A stretch of 64,000 nucleotides of DNA, from positions 232,551 through 296,550 of the IMG/VR virus record IMGVR_UViG_3300032046_000001; one strand, given 5' to 3'. This document shows, one piece after another, positions 15,933 to 48,007 of this stretch. The DNA comes from a virus. A program made the position numbers and the translations under genes. The notes under the pieces were generated by a model. It was not told the origin of the DNA. It made no database searches and saw only the letters and a program-made list of their open reading frames with translations. Each line of letters starts with the position of its first letter. The first letter of the stretch is position 1.

Positions 15933-15935
15933 TAA

Positions 15936-17410: not shown

Positions 17411-17431
17411 TTAAAGTGTGATAAAAAATAG

Positions 17432-19593: not shown

Positions 19594-20173
19594 AGATCAC
19601 ATTTCCTTTCTTCGTTTTATAACAATATCCACATTCTAAACATGTTTTTTTATTTTTTTCATATAAACATTCAAACCCATTTGCTCTTTTATCATTATTT
19701 ATATATGCGATTCTAAATCCGTCGGGTGGATCAGGCATTGTTATATCAGTAGATAAAAAAATTTGGATATTATTTAATTTATTTAGAACTTTTATTTTTT
19801 CAAATAAATTTGGAATCACACACGAACGAGTGTATGTCCAAAATTTAATACTTGATAATGATGAACAAATTTTAATCCATGAATCAATATAATCTTCACT
19901 ATAAAAATCTCCAGACGTGTGAATACGTACAATTGATTCACACGTCTTAGAGATTTTATTTATAATCATATCAGAAAAATTAGTTTGATCTTTAGAATAT
20001 TGAAAATTATTTTCGTATGATCGTTCACAAACTTTATATCTTTTCTGATATTTTAAAACATAACACTCTTTTTCACACCATTTACTTCTCCCAGGACAGC
20101 TATAATAACTGGGCATACTGATATTTAATATTTTTCCTAACTTTGTATTTCCCTTACTGATACAAAAATTCAT
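19565..20173 (-). CDS. Cys-rich hypothetical protein (202 aa)
   Basis: Cys pairs CPGRSKWCEKEC and CLECGYC. No confident family assignment. Confidence 0.45.
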   Translation of the reverse strand: MNFCISKGNTKLGKILNISMPSYYSCPGRSKWCEKECYVLKYQKRYKVCERSYENNFQYSKDQTNFSDMIINKISKTCESIVRIHTSGDFYSEDYIDSWIKICSSLSSIKFWTYTRSCVIPNLFEKIKVLNKLNNIQIFLSTDITMPDPPDGFRIAYINNDKRANGFECLYEKNKKTCLECGYCYKTKKGNVIFGKHDKRTN

Positions 20174-20662
20174 TTACGATTGTTGATTACTTTTCTCCTG
20201 TAGTATTTTAATATACTCTTGGATAATTGTGCGATAAACTAATCCATTTGGAAAGAATGGTAAAATATCAAATTCAGAATTTATCAAATTAAAATCATAT
20301 TCTGTTTTGATACCATCATTATTCAATATTTTATCGAGTGCTTTTGCTGTAGCCGAACTACGACTTATACCAGCATCGCACTGACACACTATCGTGTTAA
20401 CATTGTCTTTATTTTCAAAAATAAAATTCAAAATTTGTCTGGCATGATTTTCATTGAATAAAGTCAATTTATATTTTTCAATAATATCATCACCAATATC
20501 TTCTTCAACATCGCTAAATTTTAATTGTAGAATTCCTTTACAGTTTCTTCGTTTCGGAATTTTTGCGAATTCTTCCGAATTTTCTGTAATTGAAATTATA
20601 ATATATGGAACATCTGCATCAAAGAATCCTATAGTCCACCTGCTTTCAACTACCAGAATCAT
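20174..20662 (-). CDS. CX5R phosphatase-like protein (PTP/DUSP fold)
   Basis: Motif VCQCDAGISRSSA (C-x5-R-S). Confidence 0.55.
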   Translation of the reverse strand: MILVVESRWTIGFFDADVPYIIISITENSEEFAKIPKRRNCKGILQLKFSDVEEDIGDDIIEKYKLTLFNENHARQILNFIFENKDNVNTIVCQCDAGISRSSATAKALDKILNNDGIKTEYDFNLINSEFDILPFFPNGLVYRTIIQEYIKILQEKSNQQS

Positions 20663-24773: not shown

Positions 24774-25430
24774 TTAAATATTTTGATGATATTTATCATT
24801 TAAAATTTTTCGTATACTACTTATTGCGTGTTGTTCATATTTTTCTCTAAATAATTCAGTACGAAAAATATGTTTTTTTGGATCTAAAAGAGTTAGTAAA
24901 AAATTTATTCTGGCATTTTTACTGAATGATAATCCATATTCCTTTTCAATATTATCATCATATTGATTGAAAGTTTCTTCATCAGAACCTAATATTGAAA
25001 AATCAATGTCATACATATAATTATATTCAATTATTGGTTTGGTTGATGTTCCATATTTTGTTTCTAAAATTAAATCAGCAACTAAATCTGGATTTAATAT
25101 CAAGTCTAACTCATATATTGATCTTACTGCTTCTATAGAACTTAATAATTCTGATTCTCCATTATAAGTAGTCATGATAAAATCATGCCAGAATATGGCG
25201 TACTCCATTTCTTCACGATTTGGAAGGGTTTGCTTGATACTATCTAATAGATCAATACTTCTCATAATATGATCAATATTATGATAATGTCTTCTATGAG
25301 AAGTATATGCCGATATTAATTGATTTAAATATGCGGAGTGACTAAATCCACCACCATATAACGCAACACTTTGACATAATCTTGAAAATCTTTCTCTAAA
25401 TGATGATATATCCATTATGACCACCACCAA
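24774..25430 (-). CDS. possible HD-domain phosphohydrolase-like protein
   Basis: Segments RRHYHNIDHIMRSIDLL and FWHD. Weak call. Translationally coupled to the CoaD-CoaE gene. Confidence 0.35.
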   Translation of the reverse strand: MVVVIMDISSFRERFSRLCQSVALYGGGFSHSAYLNQLISAYTSHRRHYHNIDHIMRSIDLLDSIKQTLPNREEMEYAIFWHDFIMTTYNGESELLSSIEAVRSIYELDLILNPDLVADLILETKYGTSTKPIIEYNYMYDIDFSILGSDEETFNQYDDNIEKEYGLSFSKNARINFLLTLLDPKKHIFRTELFREKYEQHAISSIRKILNDKYHQNI

Positions 25431-26581
25431 TATCGCTGAATTGTCTCAGCTAATTTATGAAAACATTCTCGATCAAATTCAGTATCTGATACATTTGAAT
25501 TATTGAATGTGATAATATCTCCGTGACCATCTTTTTTAATTTGATCTTGTATTCGTTTTCTAAGTTCTCCTGATGTTAATTGACTATTGATTCTTTCTTC
25601 GATTTGTTTATCAGTTAAAGATCTTGATCTTAATCTTTCATATTGTTCACTTGGGCTTGTCTCAACCAAGATCACATTGTTATTAGATAGATAACCCAAA
25701 TTAAAATCTAATATTTTATTACCGAATAAATAGGCACAATTCAGAAGAATAATACAATCTTTATTTTTCTGTAATTTCTCTCGATAGAGCATGAATAGAG
25801 CTTCATCTACTAATTTATATAGTTTAATCAATCTTTCAGGATTAGGGAAAACTTTCTCAGCCAGGATATGAGAATCTATCAAACACATACAATTATTATT
25901 AGAAAATATAATATCATCACCAAATTCGTCAACAATGTTTCGACGAATTTGTGTATAATATGGTTGAAATCTCTGTGTATAAATCTCATGAACAAGATTA
26001 TCGAAGTCTATATTAATCATCTTTAATGAACCAGCTTCAATTATCTTTTTTGTGACGAATGACTTACCACAACCGATACCACCTACAACTCCAATAATTA
26101 TTTGTCCAGAAATTTTTTTCTCAAGAGCTTGTTTGACATATAAAGGTACAAACTCATGAATGAATCCTTTGTGTTGTTCTAATACTTTAACAACAGAAGA
26201 ACTCACATTTTCATACTTCTGTTCCGAAAATAAAAGTAAAGTCTCGATATTGGGAGCTTGTGATTTACCAACTTTATATAGATTTGTTTCATACTGATAA
26301 TCTTCTTGATTTCGGACACTTTTCACAATGATATCTATACCGTTTAAGATCGCATAATCAACAAGCAACCCATCAAATGCTGATACTTCAACATTAGGTA
26401 TATGAGCAACTGATTTACGGATAAGTTCCAATCTCTCATATAAATTAAAAACATACTTCTTTGTTTCATTAATTCCAACGGCAACATGTACTTGTTCAAA
26501 TAGTTTAGCTGCTCGTTCGATTGTATTTATATGACCAAAATGGATCGGGTCTCCACTCAGAGCAAACATAGCTTTTGACAT
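25415..26581 (-). CDS. coaDE: bifunctional phosphopantetheine adenylyltransferase / dephospho-CoA kinase (CoaD-CoaE fusion)
   Basis: N-terminal FALSGDPIHFGHINTIERAAKLF...NVEV...RNQEDYQYETNL (CoaD-like T/HxGH and R..DFEYE). C-terminal IIGVVGGIGCGKSFV...IDFDNL...ILVETSPSEQYERLRSR (CoaE-like P-loop). Confidence 0.7.
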   Translation of the reverse strand: MSKAMFALSGDPIHFGHINTIERAAKLFEQVHVAVGINETKKYVFNLYERLELIRKSVAHIPNVEVSAFDGLLVDYAILNGIDIIVKSVRNQEDYQYETNLYKVGKSQAPNIETLLLFSEQKYENVSSSVVKVLEQHKGFIHEFVPLYVKQALEKKISGQIIIGVVGGIGCGKSFVTKKIIEAGSLKMINIDFDNLVHEIYTQRFQPYYTQIRRNIVDEFGDDIIFSNNNCMCLIDSHILAEKVFPNPERLIKLYKLVDEALFMLYREKLQKNKDCIILLNCAYLFGNKILDFNLGYLSNNNVILVETSPSEQYERLRSRSLTDKQIEERINSQLTSGELRKRIQDQIKKDGHGDIITFNNSNVSDTEFDRECFHKLAETIQRYWWWS

Positions 26582-28714: not shown

Positions 28715-29041
28715 TTATTTTCTATAATTCCAATAACTTCTTTCATCTATTAATTCAGTACATTTTTCAAACCATTCATCCACTGTATAAATTTCTGGTA
28801 AATTCAAACTAATTTTACCATAAGCACCATTATGAATTATATCAGAGGCATAAAACGTATAACCTCCAATTTTAAAGGAATGTTTAAGATATATATTTTT
28901 TTCAAAATCATAACAAGCTCTACACTCCCGTTCTATATCACATAATAATGCCTCAGCAGATTCATACTCAGCGGGGAAAATAATTTCCCCGCCTTCATAC
29001 TCACTACCATATTGATAAATAATAACGAGTCTCATCAACAA
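28715..29041 (-). CDS. hypothetical protein (108 aa)
   Basis: ORF. Confidence 0.45.
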   Translation of the reverse strand: MLMRLVIIYQYGSEYEGGEIIFPAEYESAEALLCDIERECRACYDFEKNIYLKHSFKIGGYTFYASDIIHNGAYGKISLNLPEIYTVDEWFEKCTELIDERSYWNYRK

Positions 29042-31041
29042 TCACCAGATTCGATTCGTTTCTTCATTATTTCTTTCAATTCTTGAAGCTCTCTGCTAAC
29101 CCAAACCGATTGTCTCTTTGGAAATTTAAGATCTTTCCATTGAGGTTTCAATAATGCCATTTCAGACTGATGATATATCTTAATTTCATTAGCCATCAAT
29201 GGCACTGTTAATCTCACATCATTCTGTAAAGTAGGTTGTAGCATGTTATGACGAATATCCCTTAGATCAGTATATCGTCTTCTTCCACTATTCGACCGCT
29301 CAACCATCTCTTGAGAATCAGATTTTGGTTGATCTTTTAAAGAAGTTGAATACTCTCCTTCAGAATCACGATGTAATGATTTTTTACCAGGATCGGTCAT
29401 TTTCTCTATACTACTACTAAGTTTGATGGTTGGATTACCATCAATATCAACTAATTTATAAACAACTCCTAACGGTACAGGAACAAGTTTAGTTCCAATA
29501 CCATCAGCATCATTAGCTGCTTCTTTTTCCATCATCAACATTCTAGTATCTTCATCAATATCATTAGATGTAACGATCTTTACTGCTTTAAATCCGTTAT
29601 CATCCAGAATCTTTCTTACAGTTTGAGAATCCCAAATTAAATCACCGGAATCGATACGAACTTTAAATCTCCGTAAACCGTGTTTATTTGCCGTTTTAAG
29701 GGCATCTCTTAGTCCTGTGAAGGTTCCATAGGTATCTAAAATAAATGCGGATTTCTCCCCAAATAACGAAGCCTGGGCATCAAAACTATAGAGTTGTCTC
29801 CTGTATGCCTCAACGGAACTATGGCTTGCTGTTCCTGATAATGGAATACCATATACTTGTCCCGCTAAAACATTAGAACTTGATGTTGCCCCAGTGATAT
29901 AGAATGCTCTTGATAATTCCAATGCCGCTTCTCTACCCATTCCTCTTCGCATATGAAAGTCTGCCCAAGGAACAGATGGATTAGCCAATGTCATTCTGGC
30001 ACCATTGGTAGCACCAGCAATAACATATCCCATACATCCTAATATATAGGTTTCAATAAAATCACCGATTGCCAAAGGTGCTGTTATTTGAATTAAAGGA
30101 ATATGGGGTTGAATAACAGTTCCTTCTGGAACCATTTCAACATATCCTTTAAACGATAACTCTCTTAAGTATTCATATAATATCTCTGGAAAGTTCCATT
30201 GAGATTTGATAAAATCGATATCTCTTCCAGTCATTTCAAGCTGTTGGAGATATTCAATTACTTTTTCATTTCCCATCATTATACCGAAACTACCATTCTT
30301 TGGATTGTTTCGATAAAACATGTTAAACGTAGCGATGTCGTCTTGTTTACCAGAATGTAAATACATCGCCATTTTCAATAGTTGATAAAAATCTGTTGAC
30401 ATGGCTGAGTTTAGAGGAGGTTTATCTGTAATATAAAATCTATTACCTTGAGGATCTTGAATTTCAACATAACCATTCTTCATCACTTTCAATATTTTAT
30501 TACCGCTATTGACAAGTGATTCTAAAAACTTATCATTCATTAAAACAATTCCCTCCAGTTTCGTTTGAATAAGGTTGGTTGATCTACCATACCAGTATAT
30601 TCGAATTTTCTTTTTCCCAAATTTAAAAGCCTCATATGGCTTTAATATATCAATTCTTGATCGAAATCGAGAACTTGTTTTATCAAGAACGATTTTTTCT
30701 CTAACTACATTATCGCTCTTGTAATAAATTTTTGTGTTTCGATCTAATCCTAATTTTACCAGATCTTTCGAAACAGCAATAATTTTGTGACGATTCTTGT
30801 TATGAATCCTGTCATTCCACGCACAAATATTTGGTGTAGAATCACATTGTTTTTTTGTGGCATTATATGCAGTTGCATCAACAATCTTACTATTTATAAT
30901 CGGAATTTCCGATTGTTTAATACTCCAAATATAAAAAGATCTAAAATGATTTTTTGATTGAGTATCATAAATTTTTGAAGTTGTAATTACTACCGGACAC
31001 AATATAATTAAAATAAATAACATCATAAATGTCTTTTTCAA
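29035..31041 (-). CDS. nicotinate/nicotinamide phosphoribosyltransferase-family enzyme fused to an N-terminal signal peptide and a 3D-like domain
   Basis: C-terminal 450 aa: LNSAMSTDFYQLLKMAMYL, GATSSSN, SGTASHS, VRIDSGD and DGIGTKLV, the type-II PRTase motifs. N-terminus: MKKTFMMLFILIILCPVVITTS, then ATAYNATKKQCDSTP...KIIAVSKDLVKLG...RIDIL (3D-domain-like). Confidence 0.65.
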   Translation of the reverse strand: MKKTFMMLFILIILCPVVITTSKIYDTQSKNHFRSFYIWSIKQSEIPIINSKIVDATAYNATKKQCDSTPNICAWNDRIHNKNRHKIIAVSKDLVKLGLDRNTKIYYKSDNVVREKIVLDKTSSRFRSRIDILKPYEAFKFGKKKIRIYWYGRSTNLIQTKLEGIVLMNDKFLESLVNSGNKILKVMKNGYVEIQDPQGNRFYITDKPPLNSAMSTDFYQLLKMAMYLHSGKQDDIATFNMFYRNNPKNGSFGIMMGNEKVIEYLQQLEMTGRDIDFIKSQWNFPEILYEYLRELSFKGYVEMVPEGTVIQPHIPLIQITAPLAIGDFIETYILGCMGYVIAGATNGARMTLANPSVPWADFHMRRGMGREAALELSRAFYITGATSSSNVLAGQVYGIPLSGTASHSSVEAYRRQLYSFDAQASLFGEKSAFILDTYGTFTGLRDALKTANKHGLRRFKVRIDSGDLIWDSQTVRKILDDNGFKAVKIVTSNDIDEDTRMLMMEKEAANDADGIGTKLVPVPLGVVYKLVDIDGNPTIKLSSSIEKMTDPGKKSLHRDSEGEYSTSLKDQPKSDSQEMVERSNSGRRRYTDLRDIRHNMLQPTLQNDVRLTVPLMANEIKIYHQSEMALLKPQWKDLKFPKRQSVWVSRELQELKEIMKKRIESGDC

Positions 31042-31052
31042 ATTATTATCTC

Positions 31053-31415
31053 CTATTTAATTATTCTATTTTTATTATGATCTCCTGTATGTTTAGACGT
31101 AGGTTTTTTTTCTAAATTTTCAAAAGTATTTTCTAATTTATTTTTATTTTTATGGTGAATAACTTCATCACATTTTAATTTTTCTATAAAAGTTTCATAT
31201 AGTAAACGATGAACTCTCCTAGTTTTTATTATTTTATTTTGACATAAACGAGCACGAAGATATCCAGTACTACTCTTGGTTTGTTTTAATATTTTATTTT
31301 TCTTGATAGATTTAATTCTACTAAAATTACTTATTAGATATTCTGGAAACTCTTCGATTATTTTCCAAGTTTCATTTTTTAAATCTCGTAAGTTTAAATT
31401 TTTATATATTTTCAC
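31053..31415 (-). CDS. HNH homing endonuclease, short form lacking the C-terminal DNA-binding region
   Basis: MKIYKNLNLRDLKNETWKII...YLISNFSRIKS. VIHHKNKNKLEN. Ends soon after the HNH motif. Confidence 0.55.
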   Translation of the reverse strand: MKIYKNLNLRDLKNETWKIIEEFPEYLISNFSRIKSIKKNKILKQTKSSTGYLRARLCQNKIIKTRRVHRLLYETFIEKLKCDEVIHHKNKNKLENTFENLEKKPTSKHTGDHNKNRIIK

Positions 31416-31440
31416 TAAAATTCCTTTTTAAAAAATTTAT

Positions 31441-31490
31441 AAAAAAAATCCTCTGGATTAGGAGGGAGTAAAATATCCAGAGGATTTTTT
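31441..31490. terminator. bidirectional rho-independent terminator (12-bp stem, A8 upstream and T6 downstream)
   Basis: aaaaaaaa-tcctctggat-[16-nt loop]-atccagaggatt-tttttt. Lies between the HNH gene start and the SPFH gene 3' end. Confidence 0.6.
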
Positions 31491-31511
31491 CAATTAATAC
31501 TGTTAAACAAA

Positions 31512-32450
31512 CTATTCTTTGGTTGGGAATGTCTGTTTGTAGAGCATTGAACTCCCTACTATGGGACCGAAATTCTTACTGGTTAGTGCATCATAAGGTG
31601 CCAACATAAAAGTATTATTTGGACCCTTTGCCATTTCTTCGTACATCTTGTACTGTTCTAATGCTAATACAGCCGGTGTTAAGGAGGCACCGACAATGGC
31701 ATTGGCTTTGGCTGTAGCTCTCGCTCTTTCTACTTGGGCTTCGCCTTCCTTAATGGCAATCTCTGTCTGTCGTTCAGCTTCTCTTGTCCGCGCTTGGGCT
31801 TCTGCGGCCTTCTGTAAATCATCAAGTTCGGCATTTTTAATAGCCGTTTTCTTGTTCTTGATCTTTTCCTCATAATCCAGGTCAGATACCTTAAGGCCGG
31901 TGGTGATTATCGGGAATCCCTTACCCTTTATTTCAGCAGCAATCTGTTTGTTTAATTCATTCTCAATGGGTCCGCGTAGATCCTGGAGATTGTCAGTATT
32001 GTATGGTGCTACAACACTTCGTGTAGTACTCCGAATGGTACTTTGTATTACGGCCTTGTAGAAGGTGGCGAATTCAACTTTGTATATCTTGGAGTCACTT
32101 GTGGGAGTTGGTTTCACTATACTCAGAATTTTCTTAACAGACTCATCATCCCGTAGGTCAAACTGGCCAAAGTACTTCACATCCATGATTACAGGTATCT
32201 GATCTTTACAGAGGATGTGCATCGTGTCTTCATCAAACTTATTGATGGAACCGTCGATATAAATGGTAAGATCACGGCCATATGCGTGGTAGTTGCCATC
32301 ACGAATGATATTGAAGTTTCCACCAGAATCCTTGATAACAATTACTGTTGCTGGAGGCACGGTCTTACCCATACAACCGAAGATCGAAGGAAGGACACAT
32401 AAAATCAAAGCCATAAATAGTACATATTTCAGAGATTGTTTCGGATTCAT
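31512..32450 (-). CDS. SPFH/band-7 (stomatin/HflC-like) domain lipoprotein, GC-richer
   Basis: Signal peptide with lipobox LPSIFGC. C-terminal Ala/Glu-rich coiled coil AELDDLQKAAEAQARTREAERQTEIAIKEGEAQVERARA. Confidence 0.6.
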   Translation of the reverse strand: MNPKQSLKYVLFMALILCVLPSIFGCMGKTVPPATVIVIKDSGGNFNIIRDGNYHAYGRDLTIYIDGSINKFDEDTMHILCKDQIPVIMDVKYFGQFDLRDDESVKKILSIVKPTPTSDSKIYKVEFATFYKAVIQSTIRSTTRSVVAPYNTDNLQDLRGPIENELNKQIAAEIKGKGFPIITTGLKVSDLDYEEKIKNKKTAIKNAELDDLQKAAEAQARTREAERQTEIAIKEGEAQVERARATAKANAIVGASLTPAVLALEQYKMYEEMAKGPNNTFMLAPYDALTSKNFGPIVGSSMLYKQTFPTKE

Positions 32451-32513
32451 ATTAATGCTCCTTATATTAGAATAACATTGTTTAAACTACCATTAATATT
32501 AAGATTCTCCCTC

Positions 32514-32948
32514 CTAAAGAGTATCTAGATACTTCTGGAACTCATCACGAGCTTTTTGATTCTTTTCTCGAATCTTGTCGTTCAGTTCCATTTCACGTTT
32601 TTCTTTCATATCCTTAATGAGTTGTTCAATTGTATTCGGATCAGATGTTTTGTGATCCTCCAATTGTTTTTGATTATATTGCTCGGATTGTGTACCAACA
32701 CCGCTGTCATATGATTTCACTGTTACATCATGAAGGAATATTCTGGAAGCGATAAATATGATCGCACCAGCGGTCAGAAGTACTTTAATAACAGAATAAA
32801 TAACAGCCAGGACATTATACCATGATTCATTAACTTCAAAAATGGTGAACAATTTCTTAATTCCCCATTTCGAAGTCATAAAGATGATAATCATAAATAT
32901 GACCGATGCCACAAACCAAATCAGCGGTTGAATATGAAAATTTAACAT
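32514..32948 (-). CDS. two-TM membrane protein, possible NfeD-like partner of the SPFH protein
   Basis: Two hydrophobic segments, then a charged C-terminal tail. Immediately upstream of the SPFH gene. Confidence 0.45.
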   Translation of the reverse strand: MLNFHIQPLIWFVASVIFMIIIFMTSKWGIKKLFTIFEVNESWYNVLAVIYSVIKVLLTAGAIIFIASRIFLHDVTVKSYDSGVGTQSEQYNQKQLEDHKTSDPNTIEQLIKDMKEKREMELNDKIREKNQKARDEFQKYLDTL

Positions 32949-33075
32949 AATTTGTTCTCCTCTCGAAAAAGATTTCCTGAATCACTAATGTTGTCATCAT
33001 AACTCTTCAGGTGGATAGTATCATTTATACGTGCTATTCATTTAACTACTATGAATTGTAGAGATATAAATTACT

Positions 33076-33095
33076 TCACATATTAATATATATAA
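33076..33095 (-). promoter_or_regulatory. conserved promoter-like 20-mer TCACATATTAATATATATAA
   Basis: Exact copy. Lies 5' of the 32514..32948 gene on the - strand. Confidence 0.5.
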
Positions 33096-33119
33096 TAACT
33101 TCGGTTTATTTCTAAATTA

Positions 33120-33890
33120 TTACTCTATATTCTCATCCCATCGTACCAATGCTATTGGAGCTAATGCCCTCTTATGCTCAGTAGCTTCCATAATTTTTGA
33201 AATTCTCACTTCGTCTGGTGTTGTAGGTGTCTTACCACTGAGATATATTTTTGTGAGAACATCATCAAGAACATCATAATTTCCGATATCATCCTCATCA
33301 TAATGATTTGGTGTTAGATCAGCAGTTGGTCGCTTTGTCAGAATTTTTTCGGGAATTTGAATATAGTCGTGTTGAGTACAAAGTATATTATTATAATAAT
33401 GTGCTAGACCATATACATCTCTTTTTAGTAATTCACCTAATAATTCGATATCTGATGCTCCATCGCCGAATTTTGTAAAATATCCAGTCATAATTTCTGA
33501 TAAATTACAAGTTCCAATAACTTTACTATTATGTTCATTGGCGTATGCATACAATAGACACATTCTTATCCTAGACATTATATTTTCTTTAGTTCCATTT
33601 TGCCATAAGATTCCGGTATTATAAAAGCTATCGTATATATTTCTAATGTTTATAATAGAGTATGATACACCGAATTGGTGTACTAGATCAATACCATCCT
33701 TAAGATGTTCATTTTCCCAATATGGCATAAGCATAGCATGAATCTTGTCTTTTCCAACAGCCTGAACAGTCATTGCGAGACAAAGAGATGAGTCAATTCC
33801 ACCAGATACTCCGAGGATAAAACCACTAGATGTTTCTAATTCTTCTCTGACAAAATCAACAATAATTTGATTCACTTTTTCATAATTCAT
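33120..33890 (-). CDS. nadE: NH3-dependent NAD+ synthetase
   Basis: LGVSGGIDSSL (PP-loop SGGxDS). GYFTKFGDGASDI. RPTADL. TEHKRA. Confidence 0.85.
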   Translation of the reverse strand: MNYEKVNQIIVDFVREELETSSGFILGVSGGIDSSLCLAMTVQAVGKDKIHAMLMPYWENEHLKDGIDLVHQFGVSYSIINIRNIYDSFYNTGILWQNGTKENIMSRIRMCLLYAYANEHNSKVIGTCNLSEIMTGYFTKFGDGASDIELLGELLKRDVYGLAHYYNNILCTQHDYIQIPEKILTKRPTADLTPNHYDEDDIGNYDVLDDVLTKIYLSGKTPTTPDEVRISKIMEATEHKRALAPIALVRWDENIE

Positions 33891-34545
33891 TTTCCATTCT
33901 CCTTTTTATTTTTGATACTGTTGAATGAACTACTCCGTGTTTATTTGCAATCTGTCTTTGAGTTAAATCATCTTTTTCAATATCAATTTTTATATCAATA
34001 TATTTTTGATTTGACAACCTGTTAAGATTATTTTCACTCATTATCTTTTTTGTTTTTTCTGAATGTTTTTTTCCTTTATTGCTTTCACTTATTTTTATTT
34101 TAGTTTCTTCTGAAAGTAATCTACCTTTTGGATTATGAAGTTTGTTATGTTCTTTTTTAGGTATCATTATTAAATTTTCTAAAATATTATTTTCTTTATT
34201 TCTATCTTTATCATGATGAACACATTCATCAGATTTTAATTTATAATCATTAAAAGTTTCATAAACTAATATATGAATTTTTTTAGTTTTCTTGTTTCCA
34301 TTTTTAGATAAATTAATTACAAAATAATCATCATTATCTTTATGTTGTTTTATTATTTTTCCACTTATTTTATCATATTTAAAACTTTTAACTCGACCCA
34401 GATTACTAACTTGATAATCACAATCATAATCTAAAATATCTTTCCAAATTTCATTATCTAAATCATTAATATCTAAATTTTCGTATATTTTCATTTTAAT
34501 GCTCCAAGTATCTGAAAGAAAATTTTTATAATATAAAAATGACAT
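33880..34545 (-). CDS. HNH homing endonuclease with NUMOD3-like repeats and a C-terminal HTH
   Basis: MKIYENLDINDLDNEIWKDI...YQVSNLGRVKS. CVHHDKDRNKENN. ETKIKISESNKGKKHSEKTKK. VHSTVSKIKRR. Confidence 0.7.
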   Translation of the reverse strand: MSFLYYKNFLSDTWSIKMKIYENLDINDLDNEIWKDILDYDCDYQVSNLGRVKSFKYDKISGKIIKQHKDNDDYFVINLSKNGNKKTKKIHILVYETFNDYKLKSDECVHHDKDRNKENNILENLIMIPKKEHNKLHNPKGRLLSEETKIKISESNKGKKHSEKTKKIMSENNLNRLSNQKYIDIKIDIEKDDLTQRQIANKHGVVHSTVSKIKRRMENEL

Positions 34546-34575
34546 CTTTTTAAAACGTTATTTTACTTATTCTTT

Positions 34576-34594
34576 CATAGATTAATATATATAG
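34576..34594 (-). promoter_or_regulatory. variant of the promoter-like motif (CATAGATTAATATATATAG), 30 nt upstream of the 34545 start
   Basis: Similar to the 20-mer. Confidence 0.4.
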
Positions 34595-34598
34595 TTCT

Positions 34599-35192
34599 TC
34601 ATGACTTTGAAAAATCTGGATTCTTACCTAAAAATAAAGACCTATTTAATGCGTTTGGATCAATACCAGCTTTTTGACACAAACCAATAATATATATAGG
34701 ATCTATTGGTAATTTATATTCTTTTAATTTTCGTCGAACGTGTCGATCAATAGGAAATGCTGGTAATTTCAAATAATCTCTGATAAATAACCAAAGTACT
34801 TTAGTTCCTTTGGGATTTGCACCACATAAATTGAAAAATTCAACAATTGGTGTAGTCCATGAATATTTACCTTTTTCAAGCCAAATATCACATAATGTTT
34901 TAAATTCAATTTGTTTTTTATTTAACGAAGTTATCATATTGAATAACATATCATTTTCCCATTTTAGTGGGTAGATATTTTCAAATTGACTTGGTAAAAT
35001 ATTTCCCAAATCTCTATTATTTAACCACTGAATAGCCCTGGTTTGAACTTTTTTTCTTCTTTCGACTTTCCAAGGACCAGCACCTATACAAATAAGAAAT
35101 GCCTTATTTGATTCAGAACCTACCCATGTATGATCATAAGTAGGTTCTGATGAATACATTTTTTTTATTTTTTCGATATCTTCACTTGACAT
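34599..35192 (-). CDS. HhH-GPD superfamily DNA glycosylase-like protein
   Basis: WLFIRDYLKLPAFPIDRHVRRKL resembles the HhH-GPD helix-hairpin-helix with the P.D.HV.R signature. Confidence 0.5.
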   Translation of the reverse strand: MSSEDIEKIKKMYSSEPTYDHTWVGSESNKAFLICIGAGPWKVERRKKVQTRAIQWLNNRDLGNILPSQFENIYPLKWENDMLFNMITSLNKKQIEFKTLCDIWLEKGKYSWTTPIVEFFNLCGANPKGTKVLWLFIRDYLKLPAFPIDRHVRRKLKEYKLPIDPIYIIGLCQKAGIDPNALNRSLFLGKNPDFSKS

Positions 35193-35454
35193 GATAACCT
35201 CTATCTGATAGTTCCGTCATTGATTCAAAAAAATTATTATGATGAAATAAAATTTTTCTTCCATCACATTCAAATATTATCCAACCATTTCCTAAATTTT
35301 TTAATATTTTTGCCTCTGTTGGAATATCATACATGACAGAAAAACCACCTTCATGAACAACTTTTGATGGATCTTGTTCATATGTTTTACAGGAAATAGT
35401 TCCTAATATAATAAAAATAATTAATAAAAATTTTTTAATATTTTTGATAGTCAT
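35182..35454 (-). CDS. small lipoprotein (90 aa)
   Basis: MTIKNIKKFLLIIFIILGTISC, with lipobox GTISC. Confidence 0.45.
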   Translation of the reverse strand: MTIKNIKKFLLIIFIILGTISCKTYEQDPSKVVHEGGFSVMYDIPTEAKILKNLGNGWIIFECDGRKILFHHNNFFESMTELSDRGYHVK

Positions 35455-35593
35455 TTAGTGATGAAATTTTTCCAGTTTTCCAATCAAAAACTAAAGTATT
35501 TTCCATACGTTGACGTAGAAGTTTATCTATTTCTTCATTATGCGCCAGTTCATTTGCAAGTTTTTCCAATTTTATTTTTTCATCTTCTGTCAT
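35441..35593 (-). CDS. small coiled-coil protein (50 aa, MTEDEKIKLEKLANELAHNEEIDKLLRQRMEN...)
   Basis: A GAGGGAG SD lies upstream. Manually translated. Confidence 0.3.
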
Positions 35594-35905
35594 TTACCAA
35601 GCTCCCTCACTTTTATATCCAAGATCTTCTATTGAACTCAAATCAAAACCTCGTTCATCTTCGAACATCTGTTTTAACCTGATTCCCTTATTAATACCTT
35701 CTTGTCTCAAACATGCTGATAAATATAAAATATCTTCTCTTAAGTTTTTTAATCGTTGAATTCTGTCTTCGATTGCTCTATTTACACCTATTGTTTGTTT
35801 GTAAGATCTTTGGCTGTCTAAATTATCAATTTCAACTTTTATCAATCTTGCGATTTCAAATAACTCTTCACCATCAAAAAATCGACCTATTATTTTATTA
35901 TCCAT
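35594..35905 (-). CDS. hypothetical protein (103 aa)
   Basis: ORF. Confidence 0.45.
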   Translation of the reverse strand: MDNKIIGRFFDGEELFEIARLIKVEIDNLDSQRSYKQTIGVNRAIEDRIQRLKNLREDILYLSACLRQEGINKGIRLKQMFEDERGFDLSSIEDLGYKSEGAW

Positions 35906-36575
35906 TGAAATCTCGATTTATTAGATTAATCACACTATCTGTTCTAATAAAAAGAGCACCTGCTTTCATCATCTCAAATAAGGCATTCTGTTTGCCTTCC
36001 TCAGTGATATGATATATACAATCATCAATTACCCATACTTTCTTTCCTCGTTTAAGAAGACCAAGTACAGCAGCTAAAACACAGTACTCAGTTGCAACAC
36101 CATATACAAAGAAAGTATCAATATCGAGATATTTTAAACAAAAATCAATATTTTGATTACCACCTGGGTTCGTTTCATCCCAAAAAACATTATAGCTTTG
36201 TTTTTCAAAAGTAATTTGACATGCTGCATCTAAAAGAATTTTTAAAAGTTCTTCACTATACATATCTTCTGAATCAATATGTATTGAATACTCTGGTGTT
36301 GTTGATTCTTCAATTTTACTACAACCATTTGTATCATCTTCACAATGCATTGGAAATGGTCCACCATTTACATCAAGTTCTATTTCCGCTTCTTTATGTG
36401 CGGTATCTCCAAAATGTCTATCACCACAACCAAGTATTTTAATATTATTTTCATAACCATATTTTGTTAATTTAGAAATATTTGGAATAATTTTTTCAGA
36501 ATCTTTTATATATAATTTACCATTCTTGGTCATAAAATCAACTAACGTATCTACATCAAAAAAAGCGCATTTCAT
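35898..36575 (-). CDS. pncA: nicotinamidase (isochorismatase-family cysteine hydrolase)
   Basis: FFDVDTLVDF (catalytic Asp region). PMHCEDDTNGCS (metal-binding HC..T.G). YGVATEYCV (catalytic Cys signature). VIDDCI. Confidence 0.7.
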   Translation of the reverse strand: MKCAFFDVDTLVDFMTKNGKLYIKDSEKIIPNISKLTKYGYENNIKILGCGDRHFGDTAHKEAEIELDVNGGPFPMHCEDDTNGCSKIEESTTPEYSIHIDSEDMYSEELLKILLDAACQITFEKQSYNVFWDETNPGGNQNIDFCLKYLDIDTFFVYGVATEYCVLAAVLGLLKRGKKVWVIDDCIYHITEEGKQNALFEMMKAGALFIRTDSVINLINRDFNG

Positions 36576-37070: not shown

Positions 37071-38252
37071 TTAGGCGATCATTTCTTCTGTTATATCATA
37101 GTCCTTTTCAGTGTCATCTCTTTCAACTTCAAATTGAAAATCAACCATTAAAGACTCAATAACAGATTTTAATCCTCTCGCTCCAATCCCCTTTCTGTCA
37201 GCGATTTCGGCAATTCTTCTTATAGCATTGTCAGTAAAATTTAAATTAATATTATCAATTTCTAATAATCTCTGATATTGTTTGATTATTGAATCAACTG
37301 GGTCTGTTAAAATACGAGCTAATTCATCAATGGATAATCTATTAAGTACCGACACTATTGGAATTCGGCCAACTAATTCAGGTATTAAACCATACTGAAT
37401 AAGATCATCTTGTTCTAAATAATTTAATAAATCGATATCGCGTTCAGCTTTAGACATCTTTGTATTAAAACCAATATTATTTTTACATAGACGAGCTGAA
37501 ACAATATCAGAAAGACCATTAAAGGCACCACCAAATACAAATAATATATTTGATGTATCCATTAACAATCGATCTCCATGTGGGTGTTTTCTTGCACCTG
37601 TTGGTTGAATATTCATTACTGAACCTTCAATCATTTTTAACAAACCAAACTGAACACCTTCACCTGATACGTCTCGTGTTATCGATGTACTTGCTGAACT
37701 CTTCTTGGCTTTTTTATCAATCTCATCAATAAAAATAATTCCCTTAGATGCTCGTTCAACATCAAAATCACAAGCGAGTAATAACATTTGAATCATTGAT
37801 TCAATATTATCACCCACATAACCTTCTTCGGTTAATGTTGTTGCATCAGCAATAATAAATGGAACTCTCAATATTTTTGATAATGTCTGTGCAAAAAGTG
37901 TCTTTCCAGATCCAGATGGACCTATTAAAAGAATATTACTTTTTTGGACATTAAGGTTACATAGAATCTTTAACATATGATTATAGACACCAACAGAAAT
38001 TATTTTTTTAGTTTTTTCTTGACCAATAATATATTGATCTAAAATAATTTTAATCTCTTTTGGTGTCATGATTTTTTGTTTTTTAGGCTTTGAATTTTTA
38101 ATTTGATCAACTTTAAGATCCGAATTAATATTTTCAGCCGTTAATGCCAATCTTGCTGTATCAATACAAGAATCACAGATACAAATATTCGGATCGCTCG
38201 ATTCAATTATTAATTTATAATCTGTACTATGACAGAAGCTACATTCTCTCAT
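37071..38252 (-). CDS. clpX: ClpX-like AAA+ unfoldase
   Basis: N-terminal C4 zinc finger CSFCHS...CICDSC. Walker A GPSGSGKT. EGYVGDNIES. IIFIDEIDK. Pore loop RDVSGEGVQFGLLKMIEG. Confidence 0.85.
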   Translation of the reverse strand: MRECSFCHSTDYKLIIESSDPNICICDSCIDTARLALTAENINSDLKVDQIKNSKPKKQKIMTPKEIKIILDQYIIGQEKTKKIISVGVYNHMLKILCNLNVQKSNILLIGPSGSGKTLFAQTLSKILRVPFIIADATTLTEEGYVGDNIESMIQMLLLACDFDVERASKGIIFIDEIDKKAKKSSASTSITRDVSGEGVQFGLLKMIEGSVMNIQPTGARKHPHGDRLLMDTSNILFVFGGAFNGLSDIVSARLCKNNIGFNTKMSKAERDIDLLNYLEQDDLIQYGLIPELVGRIPIVSVLNRLSIDELARILTDPVDSIIKQYQRLLEIDNINLNFTDNAIRRIAEIADRKGIGARGLKSVIESLMVDFQFEVERDDTEKDYDITEEMIA

Positions 38253-38920
38253 TCTTCGTAATCATCCTCAATTTCATCATATATCATATTTTCTTCTTCA
38301 AATAAATTATCACTAACAATACAATTTACTGGTGAAAGACAGTTTCTATCTCTCATTAATTCATATGGTCTTCCATTTGTTAAATATTGAAGATATCTAC
38401 ACCAAGTTTTATATTTATCCAATCCAAAAATTGAATTTGAATATTTCTTCTTAAACTCATCACTCACATCTCCAACACAACATGGCATTATAATTAGAAA
38501 TGGTGATTTTGAATTTTTATATATTTCTATAATTCTAATTGCCAAATTCTTACAAGGATGTGATGCCATGATTATCGTATTTTCGTCAATCAAGTCTATT
38601 ATATCATCATCATAAATATTTTTTTCAATATACTCAAATCGTCTGATTCTCGCATATTTTCTTCTAACTATACGTTTATCAATCGCAACAGCTTTTGACA
38701 CGGGTAATGAAAAAAGAGAAAGTACGCTGGAAATTGGATTTCCAGCGCACAATTCTACAATGTTATATTTCATTGGATTATCTAAAGTAAGTTTTCGAAT
38801 TTTTTCCCGTAAAGTCATCGCTTCAGATATCTCTTTACAATATCCACTACCAATAGGTGATAACAATCCTAATACATCAGAAGAACAACGTAACCTCAAA
38901 AACATTTCAACATATTTCAT
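38249..38920 (-). CDS. hypothetical protein, possible SAM-dependent methyltransferase
   Basis: IVELCAGNPISS (motif-I-like). SHPC and PCC segments. Weak call. Confidence 0.4.
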   Translation of the reverse strand: MKYVEMFLRLRCSSDVLGLLSPIGSGYCKEISEAMTLREKIRKLTLDNPMKYNIVELCAGNPISSVLSLFSLPVSKAVAIDKRIVRRKYARIRRFEYIEKNIYDDDIIDLIDENTIIMASHPCKNLAIRIIEIYKNSKSPFLIIMPCCVGDVSDEFKKKYSNSIFGLDKYKTWCRYLQYLTNGRPYELMRDRNCLSPVNCIVSDNLFEEENMIYDEIEDDYEE

Positions 38921-38934: not shown

Positions 38935-39510
38935 TTAATATATTTTCATCATACTCTTAATTATTTCACTGTCATTCTTACTGGAAACAATAGTTGAAAT
39001 ATCATTTGTTCCAAATTTTTTAATTCGAATTGCCCATTCATCGATATCTGAAAATATGTCTAAATATTTATGAGTTTCATTAACTCTATCTTCAAGCGTT
39101 TGGTTTGGAATCTTATTTATATTTAAATAATCTATTAATAGACTGATTAAAAATTCAAAATTAAAATTTTGATTTTTTGATCTAACAATCAATTCATGAT
39201 AAAAACCATCAGCATAAATCGACATTCCTCTATACATCTTAAATTCGTCATCGATATGAAAATTGAAAAAACAATTGTGATAATTGTCTTTATACTTGTA
39301 ACTGAAATTAATTTTCAAATAAAAATTTTTTAAATTTATTTTTTCAATTAGATCATCTGGAATAACAACAACACTTAATATTTGTCTTAACTCATTAAGA
39401 TCTACTTTAGTTTCACTTAAAAATGAAACCATTGCTATTGATCCATAATTGTGATGATTATCAATAAATAATATAGACTGTTTAAATTGCTCAATTCCAA
39501 AATATGTCAT
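38935..39510 (-). CDS. hypothetical protein (191 aa)
   Basis: ORF. Confidence 0.45.
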   Translation of the reverse strand: MTYFGIEQFKQSILFIDNHHNYGSIAMVSFLSETKVDLNELRQILSVVVIPDDLIEKINLKNFYLKINFSYKYKDNYHNCFFNFHIDDEFKMYRGMSIYADGFYHELIVRSKNQNFNFEFLISLLIDYLNINKIPNQTLEDRVNETHKYLDIFSDIDEWAIRIKKFGTNDISTIVSSKNDSEIIKSMMKIY

Positions 39511-42500
39511 TAATCTCCTTTATCGATTCCGATAACTGTTAGATATGAATTTAATAATCGTACAGATTCACTTATCATATCATTCTCTTTATAAATTTCA
39601 TTCCGTAATTTATTTCCAGAATCGATTTGATCAAACATCCATTTATTCTTAGCCTCAATTGAATCAGACTTGGTTGTCATTGATTCATTCAAATTATGAA
39701 CAGAATCATGAGCAATCATACAACTAACTTCCATTTCACCAAGTCTTTGACCACCATTATTTCTTTTACCACCAGTTGGTTGTAGTGTTTTCTTAGTATA
39801 TGTTCCAATTCCTCTCGCTGATAATTTATCTTCAGCTATATGAATCATTCGAAAGAAATACAAATACCCTACAGCTAAATCATTTACAAGCGTATCACCG
39901 GCAACTGGATCATATATTGGATATTTAAATCGAGTGTTTGTATATTTCAACGCTTTTTTACATTGCTTTATATTTATCGATTCAAATGGTGGTTGAATCA
40001 AAGAAAGATCATCAATAAATTTTTCATCAATCTTGACCATTTTTAATTGATTTTTAAACTGGTTAAAATACCAGTTATCTTTTGTATTATCAATAATTTT
40101 AATATATTTTAATAAATATTTTTTAATGGTTGATTGTGATAAGATACCCTCCTTCAATTCTTGATATTTGAGTTTTTCTTCTTCAGATTCAAGTGAATCA
40201 ATCATTTGTAATAATTCATTATCTTTTTTAATCAAACTTCGCATGTTATTTTTCAGATCCATTAATGACATTGCCAAATGAAGTTCAAATAACTGTCCGA
40301 TGTTCATTCGACTTATTATTCCTAATGGATTGATGATAATATCTAATGGTCTACCATCAGGTAATTTCGGCATATCTTCAGTTTTGACAATCTTTGAAAT
40401 AACACCTTTATTGCCGTGTCTATTTCCTATTTTATCGCCAACTTCGATTTTCCGAATATAATATCCTGTTAGATGAACAAAAATACCATCAAACTTCTCA
40501 CCTTTAATTTTATACTTACCCTCAGATAAAAAGTTGTTTAAATTATTTTTAGCGAATTTATTATATTCACTTTTGGGTAAATATTTTCCCAAGATTTTAC
40601 TTATTTTTTTCTCTTTTATTTTTTGATCAATAATTTTTTGTTCAATCCAATCTTGAAATTCTTGAGGTACATTCTTAGTTGGATAATCATTGACATAAAT
40701 ATTACTTTCGAGAATACACATCTTTTTGGGAGATATTAAATTTTCATCTTCTTCAAATAACACACTGAAGTCATTGTTTTGTTGTACTTTTCGTAACATT
40801 GCATATGGTTGACCAGTATTAATCCACTCCCCAGGTTCAGGTAATGGTTTATATTCCATAGTCCTCGCACGTTCACCATATTCGTCATACTCTTCAGGTT
40901 GTGGCTTACATGTATTCAAATTTGAAAGTATTTTATTTGATGGGATAAAGAATGAGAGATCTCGATAATGAATAGAAGATAAGATTCGTTCATCGACTAA
41001 TCTTTCGGATATCACTATACCATCTTCATAATTATAACCATAGTATATACCAATACCTGTTAATAAATTTCTACCAATACTAATATTACGATCCTTTGTA
41101 AATAATGATTCAACTAAAATATCACCTTGACGAAATCGTTCTCCCTCTTTGAAGTTCGTTTCCATCATGTCCATATTATCAGTATAAATTTTCTTGTAAC
41201 CAGTTTGAATTAATTCGATTTCATCATCATCATACTTGACAATAATAAATCCCTCATCATCGTCATGATATAATACAATTCCATCTTTTTTGGCCATCTT
41301 AAGAAAGTTTGTATATTGCGTATATAAACTCTCACATCCACTTTGAATCAATGGTTTTTCTGGTTTTCTTAAAAGGATAGCTTGTCTCATTTGAGACGAG
41401 GCCATTTGTAATCTTGTTTGGTCGTCATGCTCTAAAAAAGGCACCATAGCAACTGGAATTGATATGGGACTTTTAGATTGAATCTCGCTTGTGAATTTCA
41501 TATTATGATCTAATTTTGAAGTTGGTAGAATATTTCCGACAATTCCACAATTATCTCTATCTGGTGTATCAACAACACAAATTCGTCCGAACATTGAATC
41601 ATTGATATCACGAATATTTTCTGGAACACTCTTTCTTTCGAAACCATTCGGACCCAATAATGATATTCTTGATAATTCAGTCAATGAATCAATAGGATTT
41701 ATTGAAAAATCAAATTGAATAATTTCCGATACATTACAGTTCTGTAATATTTCGGATGAATTGATATTAAATTTTGGTTTTGAATTTTTAGTTATAATAC
41801 ATAGATTGAATATTGCTTTTGCCACATAACTAAAAATTAAATATTCAAAACATCTAATTCGTTTATTTTCATAATTTAAAAAATCAAAAGGTCCATTTTG
41901 TATAGCATCAATAAAATCTTCTATAACAGAACCAGTTTTAAGAAATCTGGCTGTTATAACATCAATTTTTGGTATAAGATCTAATCCATATAATATTTCT
42001 TCACCTTTAAGTTTGGCATTATACTTAGTAAAAGTTTCACCCAACATCTTGGTATATTCGTCTTTGGTCTTATTCATATTATAATATAAATAGACTTGTT
42101 TAATTAATCGATTATAAAATGTGTCTTCTAAACCTTCAACGTTTTCCTGACTTAAATTAAATCGTGAATTTAATACTTCTGGACCATAATAGGCCAATAA
42201 TAATAATGCGAAAGGTAGTTTTTTATTAAGAAAGGTAAATATGATCGTTTTCTTTTCATAAAGTATTATAGTCTGGACATTTGATTTAAACTTAATTATA
42301 AAACTATCATCTGATTTTTTATTCAATTTTGTTATTATTGGAAAATCGGTAATTTGAAAATGAGGAATCTTTCTTTTACCATTGATAAAAATATAATTAT
42401 CGTCAATGAGTTCTGGAATGTTAATACTTAGATCAACTTTTGCCTCATCTTTTGATAAGATAATATTTAAATTTTTCTTAAACGTTTTCTGTAACTCTTC

Positions 42501-42671
42501 CCCTTGAGATCGACAATCGTTTATTTCAAACTTCTCAATTTTATATCCAATTTCTTTGACTGGTTGTAATGCCTCAAATATTTGTCCTTCAAGTTTTTCA
42601 TATTCACGTTTTCTTAAAGTAAAAATATTATCAACATCATCAATTTTTAGATTCGGATTTTCTATAATCAT
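39510..42671 (-). CDS. rpoB: DNA-directed RNA polymerase beta subunit, compact bacterial type (1053 aa)
   Basis: GDKIGNRHGNKGVISKI...LDIIINPLGIISRMNIGQLFELHL. C-terminal GGQRLGEMEVSCMIAHD. Fork and clamp segments recognisable. Confidence 0.9.
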   Translation of the reverse strand: MIIENPNLKIDDVDNIFTLRKREYEKLEGQIFEALQPVKEIGYKIEKFEINDCRSQGEELQKTFKKNLNIILSKDEAKVDLSINIPELIDDNYIFINGKRKIPHFQITDFPIITKLNKKSDDSFIIKFKSNVQTIILYEKKTIIFTFLNKKLPFALLLLAYYGPEVLNSRFNLSQENVEGLEDTFYNRLIKQVYLYYNMNKTKDEYTKMLGETFTKYNAKLKGEEILYGLDLIPKIDVITARFLKTGSVIEDFIDAIQNGPFDFLNYENKRIRCFEYLIFSYVAKAIFNLCIITKNSKPKFNINSSEILQNCNVSEIIQFDFSINPIDSLTELSRISLLGPNGFERKSVPENIRDINDSMFGRICVVDTPDRDNCGIVGNILPTSKLDHNMKFTSEIQSKSPISIPVAMVPFLEHDDQTRLQMASSQMRQAILLRKPEKPLIQSGCESLYTQYTNFLKMAKKDGIVLYHDDDEGFIIVKYDDDEIELIQTGYKKIYTDNMDMMETNFKEGERFRQGDILVESLFTKDRNISIGRNLLTGIGIYYGYNYEDGIVISERLVDERILSSIHYRDLSFFIPSNKILSNLNTCKPQPEEYDEYGERARTMEYKPLPEPGEWINTGQPYAMLRKVQQNNDFSVLFEEDENLISPKKMCILESNIYVNDYPTKNVPQEFQDWIEQKIIDQKIKEKKISKILGKYLPKSEYNKFAKNNLNNFLSEGKYKIKGEKFDGIFVHLTGYYIRKIEVGDKIGNRHGNKGVISKIVKTEDMPKLPDGRPLDIIINPLGIISRMNIGQLFELHLAMSLMDLKNNMRSLIKKDNELLQMIDSLESEEEKLKYQELKEGILSQSTIKKYLLKYIKIIDNTKDNWYFNQFKNQLKMVKIDEKFIDDLSLIQPPFESINIKQCKKALKYTNTRFKYPIYDPVAGDTLVNDLAVGYLYFFRMIHIAEDKLSARGIGTYTKKTLQPTGGKRNNGGQRLGEMEVSCMIAHDSVHNLNESMTTKSDSIEAKNKWMFDQIDSGNKLRNEIYKENDMISESVRLLNSYLTVIGIDKGD

Positions 42672-42934: not shown

Positions 42935-43737
42935 TCATATAATAACTTTAAAATAATCATCAACTGTTTTAAAATATTCGTGATTGAGTTCTATTCCGAT
43001 TCCATGACGATTTAACTTCGCAGCAACTTTTAACGTTGTACCACTTCCCATAAACGGATCTAAAATATTATCATTGGGTTGTGTAAAAAGTTTTATAAAC
43101 CATTCAGGAATCCATATTGGAAACACAGCACTATGATTTTTATTATTACATTCAGTAGCACCATATAAGACATTAGTTGGATAAACCATATCTCTTTTGA
43201 TCCAATTAGAGACGTTTTTTCCAAAACCACTTCCAACTTTCGATTGATCTCTAATTTTATCCGTTTCACTTAAATTTTTTAATCTTGATTGTGACCAATC
43301 ACCAATTGGAATCATTACATTATCTTGAAACATGTTGAATTTTTTATCTTTATTGAATTGATAAAGATGTTCCCATGAATCACGAAATCTATTTGGCCAT
43401 TTTCCAGGAAAACAGTTCTTTTTATGCCAGATGAATTCCTCAGTCCATAACCATCCCTGTTTTCTCATAGCCAAAACAAGTTCTATTACATATGTATGTC
43501 TTTCTCCTCCAACTGCACACTCTTTTATATTTAAAATAAACGTACCTGTCGGTTTCAAGACTCTTAAAAGTTCTTGTGATATTGGAATAAACCATTCTAT
43601 ATATTTATCTGGATGTACACCACCGTATGTATTTTTCTCTGATTCGCATATGGTGGAGATGTTAATATTAAGTCTATTGAATTACTATCTATTTCTTTTA
43701 ATTTATCTGAACAATCACCAAGTAATAAACGTATCAA
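42935..43737 (-). pseudogene. N4/N6 DNA methyltransferase (beta-class order: SPPY then FxGxG) interrupted by a frameshift at an A5 (T5 on +) run
   Basis: Upstream frame: (TTG)IRLLLGDCSDKLKEIDSNSIDLILTSPPYANQRK... ends with a stop at 43597. Downstream frame: ...NTYGGVHPDKYIEWFIPISQELLRVLKPTGTF...DPFMGSGTT. Adding one A at 43632-43636 joins the two frames. Confidence 0.55.
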
Positions 43738-47981: not shown

Positions 47982-48007
47982 AAGGGATGGAATTTCTTCC
48001 ATCCCTT
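47982..48007. terminator. 11-bp hairpin (aagggatggaa-tttc-ttccatccctt)
   Basis: Perfect inverted repeat 50 nt 3' of the 48057 gene end on the - strand. Followed on + by ttttccactt and on - by an AU-rich tract. Confidence 0.35.

Follow-up and report, generated by a model that had tools for sequence, protein, structure and literature searches.

Probable genes for three of the four steps of deamidating NAD+ salvage in a divergent huge phage

Depletion of NAD+ is a widespread bacterial defence, and the stretch of viral DNA studied here (64,000 nucleotides, positions 232,551 to 296,550 of the IMG/VR record IMGVR_UViG_3300032046_000001; hereafter the window) raises the question of whether a huge phage can help to rebuild this cofactor through a deamidating salvage route. 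Within 7.5 kb the window encodes three enzymes of one pathway, a PncA-type nicotinamidase, a nicotinate phosphoribosyltransferase (NAPRT) and an NH3-type NAD synthetase (NadE). We think it probable that the phage thereby covers all but one of the four steps in the deamidating salvage route (PncA plus the Preiss-Handler pathway), offsetting NAD+ loss in the infected cell. The locus is a divergent new example of an already described phage PncA/Preiss-Handler salvage, here without the adenylyltransferase NadD in the window, and what is new is a conserved in-frame fusion of NAPRT to a double-psi beta-barrel (DPBB) domain with an internal start, together with a linked CoaD-CoaE fusion.

Three salvage enzymes and a step probably supplied from elsewhere

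The initial annotation had named the three enzymes from short motifs and placed them within 29035-36575, and profile searches bear out both the names and the placement, all on the minus strand, with the cut-offs of NAPRTase_N and TIGR01513, of NAD_synthase and TIGR00552, and of Isochorismatase all passed. Five of the quoted motifs stand literally in the translations (YGVATEYCV, GTASHS, RIDSGD, SGGIDS and TEHKR), while the one given as GTSSN reads GATSSSN and the one given as HC..T.G reads HCEDDTNG. NadE (33120-33890, minus strand, 256 aa) is a single-domain enzyme in which the glutaminase domain is absent, predicted to convert nicotinate adenine dinucleotide (NaAD) to NAD+. It scores 200.5 bits with TIGR00552 (cut-off 63.65), 197 bits with Pfam NAD_synthase and 124 bits with PHROG 11189 ‘NAD synthetase’; its P-loop, SGGIDS, lies at aa 29-34, and its best PDB match is the NH3-dependent NAD synthetase of P. 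horikoshii (2E18, 150.7 bits, aa 2-243).

The open reading frame (ORF) at 29035-31041 (minus strand) is 668 aa in full, and its NAPRT portion, of PncB type and TIGR01513 class, comprises 501 aa from an internal ATG at codon 168 (29035-30540); it is predicted to join nicotinate and phosphoribosyl pyrophosphate (PRPP) to give nicotinate mononucleotide (NaMN). The protein reaches 84.5 bits with Pfam NAPRTase_N (cut-off 32.6) and 324 bits with TIGR01513 (cut-off 297.4), where aa 214-651 cover model positions 2-451 of 452, and it matches E. faecalis NAPRT (2F7F) with 223 bits. Both in sequence and in fold the phosphoribosyltransferase resembles NAPRT more closely than it does NAMPT or QPRT, which upholds the family assignment proposed from the motifs. 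Invariant in the alignment are H407 of the GT-x-x-HS motif, which we take to be the phosphorylated residue of the NAPRT family, R365/R366, D464 and G514/G516. The enzyme also carries a 46-aa N-terminal extension that it has in common with a few metagenomic and DPANN-type homologues.

The third gene (35898-36575, minus strand) encodes the 225-aa PncA, predicted to hydrolyse nicotinamide to nicotinate and NH3. It has the isochorismatase fold and scores 70.2 bits with Pfam Isochorismatase PF00857 (cut-off 27), and the top four of its five PDB sequence matches are nicotinamidases/pyrazinamidases (1IM5, 2WT9, 29IV, 3S2S), the fifth, 3R2J, being labelled ‘alpha/beta-hydrolase-like protein’. The triad D9, K125 and C165 and the metal ligands D52, H54 and H77 are invariant in an alignment of the window protein with gp275 of phage G and the homologues from L004 and L008 (L001-L010 are labels of related loci used for comparison with the window), and on alignment to 1IM5 the segments containing D9, DRH, HC and ATEYCV fall on known residues. 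With catalytic residues intact on alignment, the genes do not look inactive, as the initial annotation had allowed they might be.

The order pncA, a 197-aa glycosylase-like gene, nadE, a Band 7 gene and DPBB/NAPRT is kept in relatives with 41-47% identity in NAPRT. That three enzymes of a single pathway lie within 7.5 kb, and do so again at such distances, is far beyond chance, and the preserved order implies long-term retention, which argues for selection on the module.

Although the initial annotation treated the whole ORF 29035-31041 as a phosphoribosyltransferase, this holds only from codon 168; the first 167 codons (30541-31041) are separate from it and encode a hydrophobic signal/anchor helix and, after this, a 3D-like DPBB. 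The latter is a beta domain of ~100 residues that shows the double-psi beta-barrel fold with conserved aspartates. Pfam 3D (PF06725) does not match it even at E=0.5, and matches the homologue P0123 with E=3.9e-4, below the cut-off; one of 46 relatives reaches E 0.006, and NCBI gives P0124 the name ‘3D domain-containing protein’. Our metagenome scan returned 5 fused DPBB-NAPRT loci and 25 loci with a stand-alone DPBB, the 312-kb contig of the window's own NAPRT not being among them, and no relatives turned up when IMG/VR was scanned with the NAPRT ORF. Most relatives share the in-frame fusion of DPBB and NAPRT. In L010 the DPBB gene (68-730) and the NAPRT gene are separate, the space between them holding stop codons, an ATG and a ribosome-binding site, and the window ORF is thus a fusion of two genes that were once adjacent.

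The junction itself retains the marks of a gene start. A Shine-Dalgarno-like GGAGGG (30551-30556, minus strand) lies 10 nt upstream of ATG codon 168 (30538-30540), and an equivalent motif with an in-frame ATG or TTG occurs in L002, L004, L007, L008 and L009; in L010 it stands at the true start of the NAPRT gene, and the internal start site in every fused lineage coincides exactly with that start. Against the background of the window, where a Shine-Dalgarno motif precedes 3.9-8.6% of 514 internal in-frame start codons vs 47-60% of ORF starts, and because motif and start codon are kept in all fused lineages at the very position of the L010 gene start, a separate 501-aa cytoplasmic NAPRT is probably made by internal initiation at codon 168.

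The initial annotation had left the NaMN adenylyltransferase step without a clear gene, and our searches agree. NadD, NadM and NadR are all missing from Pfam and NCBIfam scans that took in nearly all window ORFs of at least 100 aa; a motif scan of all six window frames found the HxGH signature only in 25415-26581; and tblastn with the NadD of phage G gave no match, either to the window or to any of the related loci. Among HxGH nucleotidyltransferases, the window and its relatives have CoaD alone. Because neither the window nor the readable related loci contain an adenylyltransferase, NaMN adenylation must, judging from these sequences, come from host NadD or from the ~250 kb of phage genome outside the window, which no gene search covered.

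We suggest that PncA would deamidate nicotinamide to nicotinate, which NAPRT, translated as an active cytoplasmic enzyme from the conserved internal ribosome-binding site and ATG codon 168, would combine with PRPP to form NaMN; the essential NadD of the host, or a phage NadD encoded outside the window, would convert NaMN to NaAD, and the phage NadE would then use NaAD, ammonia and ATP to make NAD+. The module would in this way raise the flux from nicotinamide and nicotinate to NAD+ in the infected cell, offsetting NAD+ loss whether it arises from NADase defence systems or from the phage’s own demand. Being independent of ADP-ribose (ADPR), such a route should be indifferent to whether a NADase releases ADPR or ADPR-1''-phosphate, a point that the aRES preprint makes for NARP2, a phage route described below.

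Counter-defence, cofactor supply and the enzymes' substrates

Several points weigh against a salvage route that serves to offset NAD+ loss. No NadD or NMNAT lies within the 64 kb, so the route as seen here is incomplete. PncA reaches 49.5 bits with the nicotinamidase equivalog NF008623 vs a cut-off of 174, the match being confined to aa 126-214, and it has two insertions relative to canonical enzymes; because this cut-off is not reached, nicotinamide is its probable, not its certain, substrate. The 668-aa ORF as written has a secretion-type N-terminus that would misplace an ATP/PRPP-dependent enzyme. The predicted cost, up to three ATP plus PRPP per NAD+, is above that of NARP1 or NARP2, and in the literature we found no experiment that links the deamidated route to defence evasion or tests it as a counter-defence. 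A counter-defence role is nonetheless plausible.

A purely metabolic role is a serious rival. The module may complement a host without PncA or PncB, or enlarge the NAD+ pool for the phage’s own NAD+-consuming replication and repair enzymes, irrespective of NADase immunity, and we regard this as a real though lesser possibility. A survey of jumbo phages (PMC11662467) makes the case that the NAD+ routes of phage and host complement one another, and describes NAD-jumbo phages with many NAD+-consuming enzymes; the adjacent CoaD-CoaE fusion suggests a general supply of cofactors; and the window holds no defence-specific partner (Adps, Namat or a sponge protein). Yet the presence of PncA makes nicotinamide, the direct product of NADases, the entry substrate, and functions in conflict are suggested by two further products of the window, a macro domain of the DarG/Poa1p class and a Panacea-domain protein. 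The two roles are not mutually exclusive and may coexist.

The macro domain protein (18068-18526, minus strand), which the initial annotation had recognised, does belong to the DarG/TARG1/Poa1p class. NCBIfam DarG NF048014 matches it with 59.8 bits (E 2.6e-16) over aa 7-147, that is, for the macro part only; its PDB matches include 5M3I, the macro domain of DarG (40 bits), and, more weakly, the ADP-ribose-1''-phosphate phosphatase Poa1p (6LFQ, 28 bits); Pfam Macro gives 20 bits, just under the cut-off of 22, and PHROG 335 ‘phosphatase’ 123 bits. The protein may remove ADP-ribose from DNA, or may work in the manner of Adpp, the phosphatase of NARP1-AP; its gene lies 10 kb from the NAD genes, with nothing tying them together. 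For the CX5R protein (20174-20662, minus strand, 162 aa), proposed alongside it as a phosphatase, the loop is there (CQCDAGISRS, CX5R-S) and makes it a candidate Cys-phosphatase, but the profile evidence is marginal (Pfam DSPc, E=0.057) and PDB sequence searches gave no match. It matches PHROG 5614 (function unknown) with 63 bits and is 36% identical to its counterpart in L002. Adjoining it is a gene for a GP88-family protein (19565-20173, minus strand; Pfam PF17338, 92 bits), and both genes are conserved in L002.

The order of the last two steps could also differ, as in Francisella, where a short NadE amidates NaMN to NMN; an NMN adenylyltransferase, either host NadR/NadM or one encoded elsewhere in the phage, would then make NAD+. 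The window NadE does fall in the short PH0182-like class and matches the F. tularensis NadE 3FIU with 103 bits, and no NadD is present in the window. We nevertheless judge this order unlikely: ordinary NAD synthetases match best (2E18, and TIGR00552 above its cut-off), the scores cannot tell which substrate NadE prefers, and an adenylyltransferase would still be required, so that the alternative explains nothing more. A similarly low probability attaches to the idea that the isochorismatase-family protein is some other cysteine hydrolase, in which case the phage would use only external nicotinate. The low NF008623 score, the two insertions and a short K-x-SY spacing like that of generic isochorismatase hydrolases favour such an enzyme, but the D-x-H...H metal site, the mark of nicotinamidases, is invariant, the four best PDB matches are nicotinamidases, and three lineages as well as phage G keep pncA together with nadE and NAPRT.

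The remaining alternatives concern the gene at 25415-26581 (minus strand), a fusion of CoaD (phosphopantetheine adenylyltransferase, PPAT) and CoaE (dephospho-CoA kinase, DPCK) in which both halves pass their equivalog cut-offs (TIGR01510, 152.7 bits, cut-off 103.3; TIGR00152, 77.2 bits, cut-off 65.55). NadD/NMNAT models reach at most 23 bits, and these over the first 70 residues only, and NadR models at most 20 bits; the best 34 PDB matches are all PPATs (up to 120 bits), followed by DPCKs (up to 40 bits), with no NadD or NMNAT among them. The fusion has the same architecture as eukaryotic CoA synthase and is syntenic with NAPRT, a few genes downstream, in L001, L002 and L007. In the phage collection no record matches it over at least 80% of its length, and our literature search found nothing on phage-encoded CoaD-CoaE fusions. 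One reading makes the region a cofactor-rebuilding island, in which CoaD-CoaE would restore coenzyme A from 4'-phosphopantetheine beside the NAD+ route or, in a variant, its PPAT-like domain would moonlight as a NaMN adenylyltransferase; we think this quite improbable, but were it true, some hosts would starve phages of CoA as well, by an undescribed immunity mechanism. Least probable of all is the suggestion, made in the initial annotation, that the CoaD-like half supplies the NaMN adenylyltransferase step and renders the phage self-sufficient: the HxGH nucleotidyltransferase fold is common to PPAT and NadD, synteny of the gene with NAPRT extends to three lineages and a PHROG 3462 NMNAT profile matches weakly (37.5 bits), but the full-length CoaD match, the PPAT-only top PDB matches and the fused CoaE kinase all fit CoA synthesis, and in L003-L005 the gene is not found within 5 kb downstream of NAPRT.

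Neighbouring genes and the source phage

Between and around the salvage genes stand several others, all on the minus strand. Two genes for homing endonucleases interrupt the cluster and are lineage-specific insertions: one (33880-34545; Pfam NUMOD4, HNH_3, NUMOD3) sits between the glycosylase-like gene and nadE and is missing at the corresponding position in L002 and L004, and the other (31053-31415; Pfam NUMOD4, HNH_3) lies directly upstream of the NAPRT ORF. Between nadE and NAPRT are also genes for an SPFH/Band 7 protein (31512-32450; Pfam Band_7, 36.9 bits), which recurs at the corresponding position in L003-L005 and L007, and for a hydrophobic protein of 144 aa (32514-32948). A scan for promoters and terminators across 25-37.5 kb gave no excess over shuffled sequences.

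The 197-aa gene that adjoins pncA (34599-35192) is the most conserved of the neighbourhood, with 52-55% identity in L004 and L008, where it directly follows pncA; it belongs to a family of 49 clusters with a conserved PIDRH motif. Pfam and PDB sequence searches gave no match to the protein. Its AF2 model (pLDDT 95) has an all-helical HhH-GPD fold, and among the Foldseek PDB matches listed all are HhH-GPD DNA glycosylases (OGG/AGOG, EndoIII, AlkA, MutY), at E 2e-3 and weaker and a TM score of ~0.5. We also considered this protein as a substitute adenylyltransferase and rejected it on the glycosylase model and on the occurrence of the gene in another phage contig unlinked to NAD genes; we regard it as a DNA-glycosylase-like neighbour that contributes no step to the pathway.

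The window comes from an uncultured huge phage that is deeply divergent and has a genome of 312 kb or more. This follows from the exact NAPRT protein (P0001) being found on a 312,420-bp JGI contig, from a T4-type large terminase (7430-9103; Pfam Terminase_6N; PHROG 2, 128 bits) with 28% identity to the closest catalogued phage terminase, and from the absence of any megablast match between the 7.5-kb NAD region and phage records. The window is low in G+C (~28%), has nearly all its genes on the minus strand and also codes for a virion structural protein. Full-length RNA polymerase beta and beta' are encoded within 39510-42671, 42935-43558 and 43754-46537, with an N6/N4 DNA methylase between the two, and just downstream of them in window coordinates come ClpX (37071-38252) and a methyltransferase-like gene (38249-38920), all on the minus strand. 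A cluster of eight tRNA genes (13968-17502, minus strand) comprises Ser, His, Lys, Asp, Leu, Trp, Ile-TAT and Glu, and we saw no suppressor tRNA or stop-codon recoding in the window.

Homing endonucleases number five in all (9093-9896, 11176-12045, 13364-13945, 31053-31415 and 33880-34545, minus strand), three being HNH/NUMOD4 and two GIY-YIG/NUMOD3; of the GIY-YIG genes one lies directly against the terminase gene and the other ~2 kb further on. A patch at 48000-56000 is raised in G+C (0.35-0.41 vs ~0.27), and with it are associated two ThiF/E1-like proteins (46968-47861 and 49168-49869, minus strand), a second radical SAM protein (53507-54490) and large ORFs without a family match (51063-53477 and 49853-51133). 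Further on, an SbcC/Rad50-like ATPase (57410-59608) is followed by the SocA/Panacea-domain protein (59595-60149), both on the minus strand, and an RNA ligase lies at 62980-63510.

Relation to known phage NAD+ systems

The initial annotation held that a Preiss-Handler-type set would be a distinct variant among phage NAD-reconstitution pathways. It is not a new one, because both Bacillus phage G and the jumbo phages of a 2024 Microbiome paper (PMC11662467) precede it. Phage G (NC_023719, gp273-gp283) is annotated with a NUDIX hydrolase, an isochorismatase (gp275), NAPRT (gp277), KptA, a NaMN adenylyltransferase (gp281) and an NAD synthetase (gp283). Like the source of the window it is a huge phage, with isochorismatase/PncA-like, NAPRT and NAD synthetase genes within 6 kb on one strand, the products being 34% (NAPRT), 33% (NAD synthetase) and 25% (PncA-like) identical to those of the window. 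Unlike the uncultured phage studied here, phage G is cultured, its NAPRT is without the DPBB fusion, and with its adenylyltransferase the route is complete, NUDIX and KptA being further differences. The jumbo phages of the 2024 paper include examples with complete Preiss-Handler clusters (pncB, nadD, nadE), such as Kuafu_71, and phage pncA is mentioned there. They resemble the window in being metagenomic, in clustering pncB with nadE and in having a route predicted by bioinformatics only. To count as an NAD-jumbo phage in that paper, a phage must encode the whole pathway with nadD, a gene not seen in the window, and neither a DPBB-NAPRT fusion nor a CoaD-CoaE neighbour is described in it.

Experimentally shown routes are NARP1 (Adps plus Namat), NARP2 (NAMPT plus NMNAT) and NARP3 (PnuC plus NadR), and two earlier surveys of phage NAD+ systems took in amidated enzymes only. 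NARP2, known from the NAMPT and NMNAT of Vibrio phage KVP40 (Osterman et al., 10.1101/2024.02.11.579819), is like the predicted window route in that NAD+ is drawn by classical salvage chemistry from nicotinamide and PRPP and not from ADPR. In contrast to the two amidated and experimentally tested steps of NARP2, the window route is deamidated, has four steps and involves neither NAMPT nor NMNAT. With NARP1 (Adps and Namat), NARP1-AP (the same pair joined by the macro-domain phosphatase Adpp) and NARP3 the predicted route shares the goal of NAD+ restoration, and with NARP1-AP also the presence of a Poa1p/DarG-class macro domain, although the window copy is distant from the NAD genes and has its best matches in DarG. 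PRPS-like Adps, Namat, PnuC, NadR, NAMPT and NMNAT are all absent from the scanned window ORFs. A reading of the NAPRT as a Namat-like user of ADPR pyrophosphate was set aside as unsupported, as there is no Adps and the NAPRT equivalog cut-off is passed. The closest parallel in enzyme families and predicted chemistry is the bacterial PncA-PncB-NadD-NadE salvage, from which the window differs in that its genes are virus-encoded, NadD is missing, and NAPRT is fused to a cell-wall-type domain and bears the 46-aa extension.

The deamidated PncA/PncB/NadE route has so far only been annotated or predicted in huge phages, and a deeply divergent lineage that keeps the module over long distances supports selection for this route in phages. 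Its genes are well-defined candidates with which a counter-measure of Preiss-Handler type could be put to a functional test for the first time. As a matter of gene structure, the fusion of DPBB and NAPRT with a conserved internal start is a minor but tangible oddity, and the CoaD-CoaE fusion prompts one to ask if phages and their hosts contest other cofactors, too.

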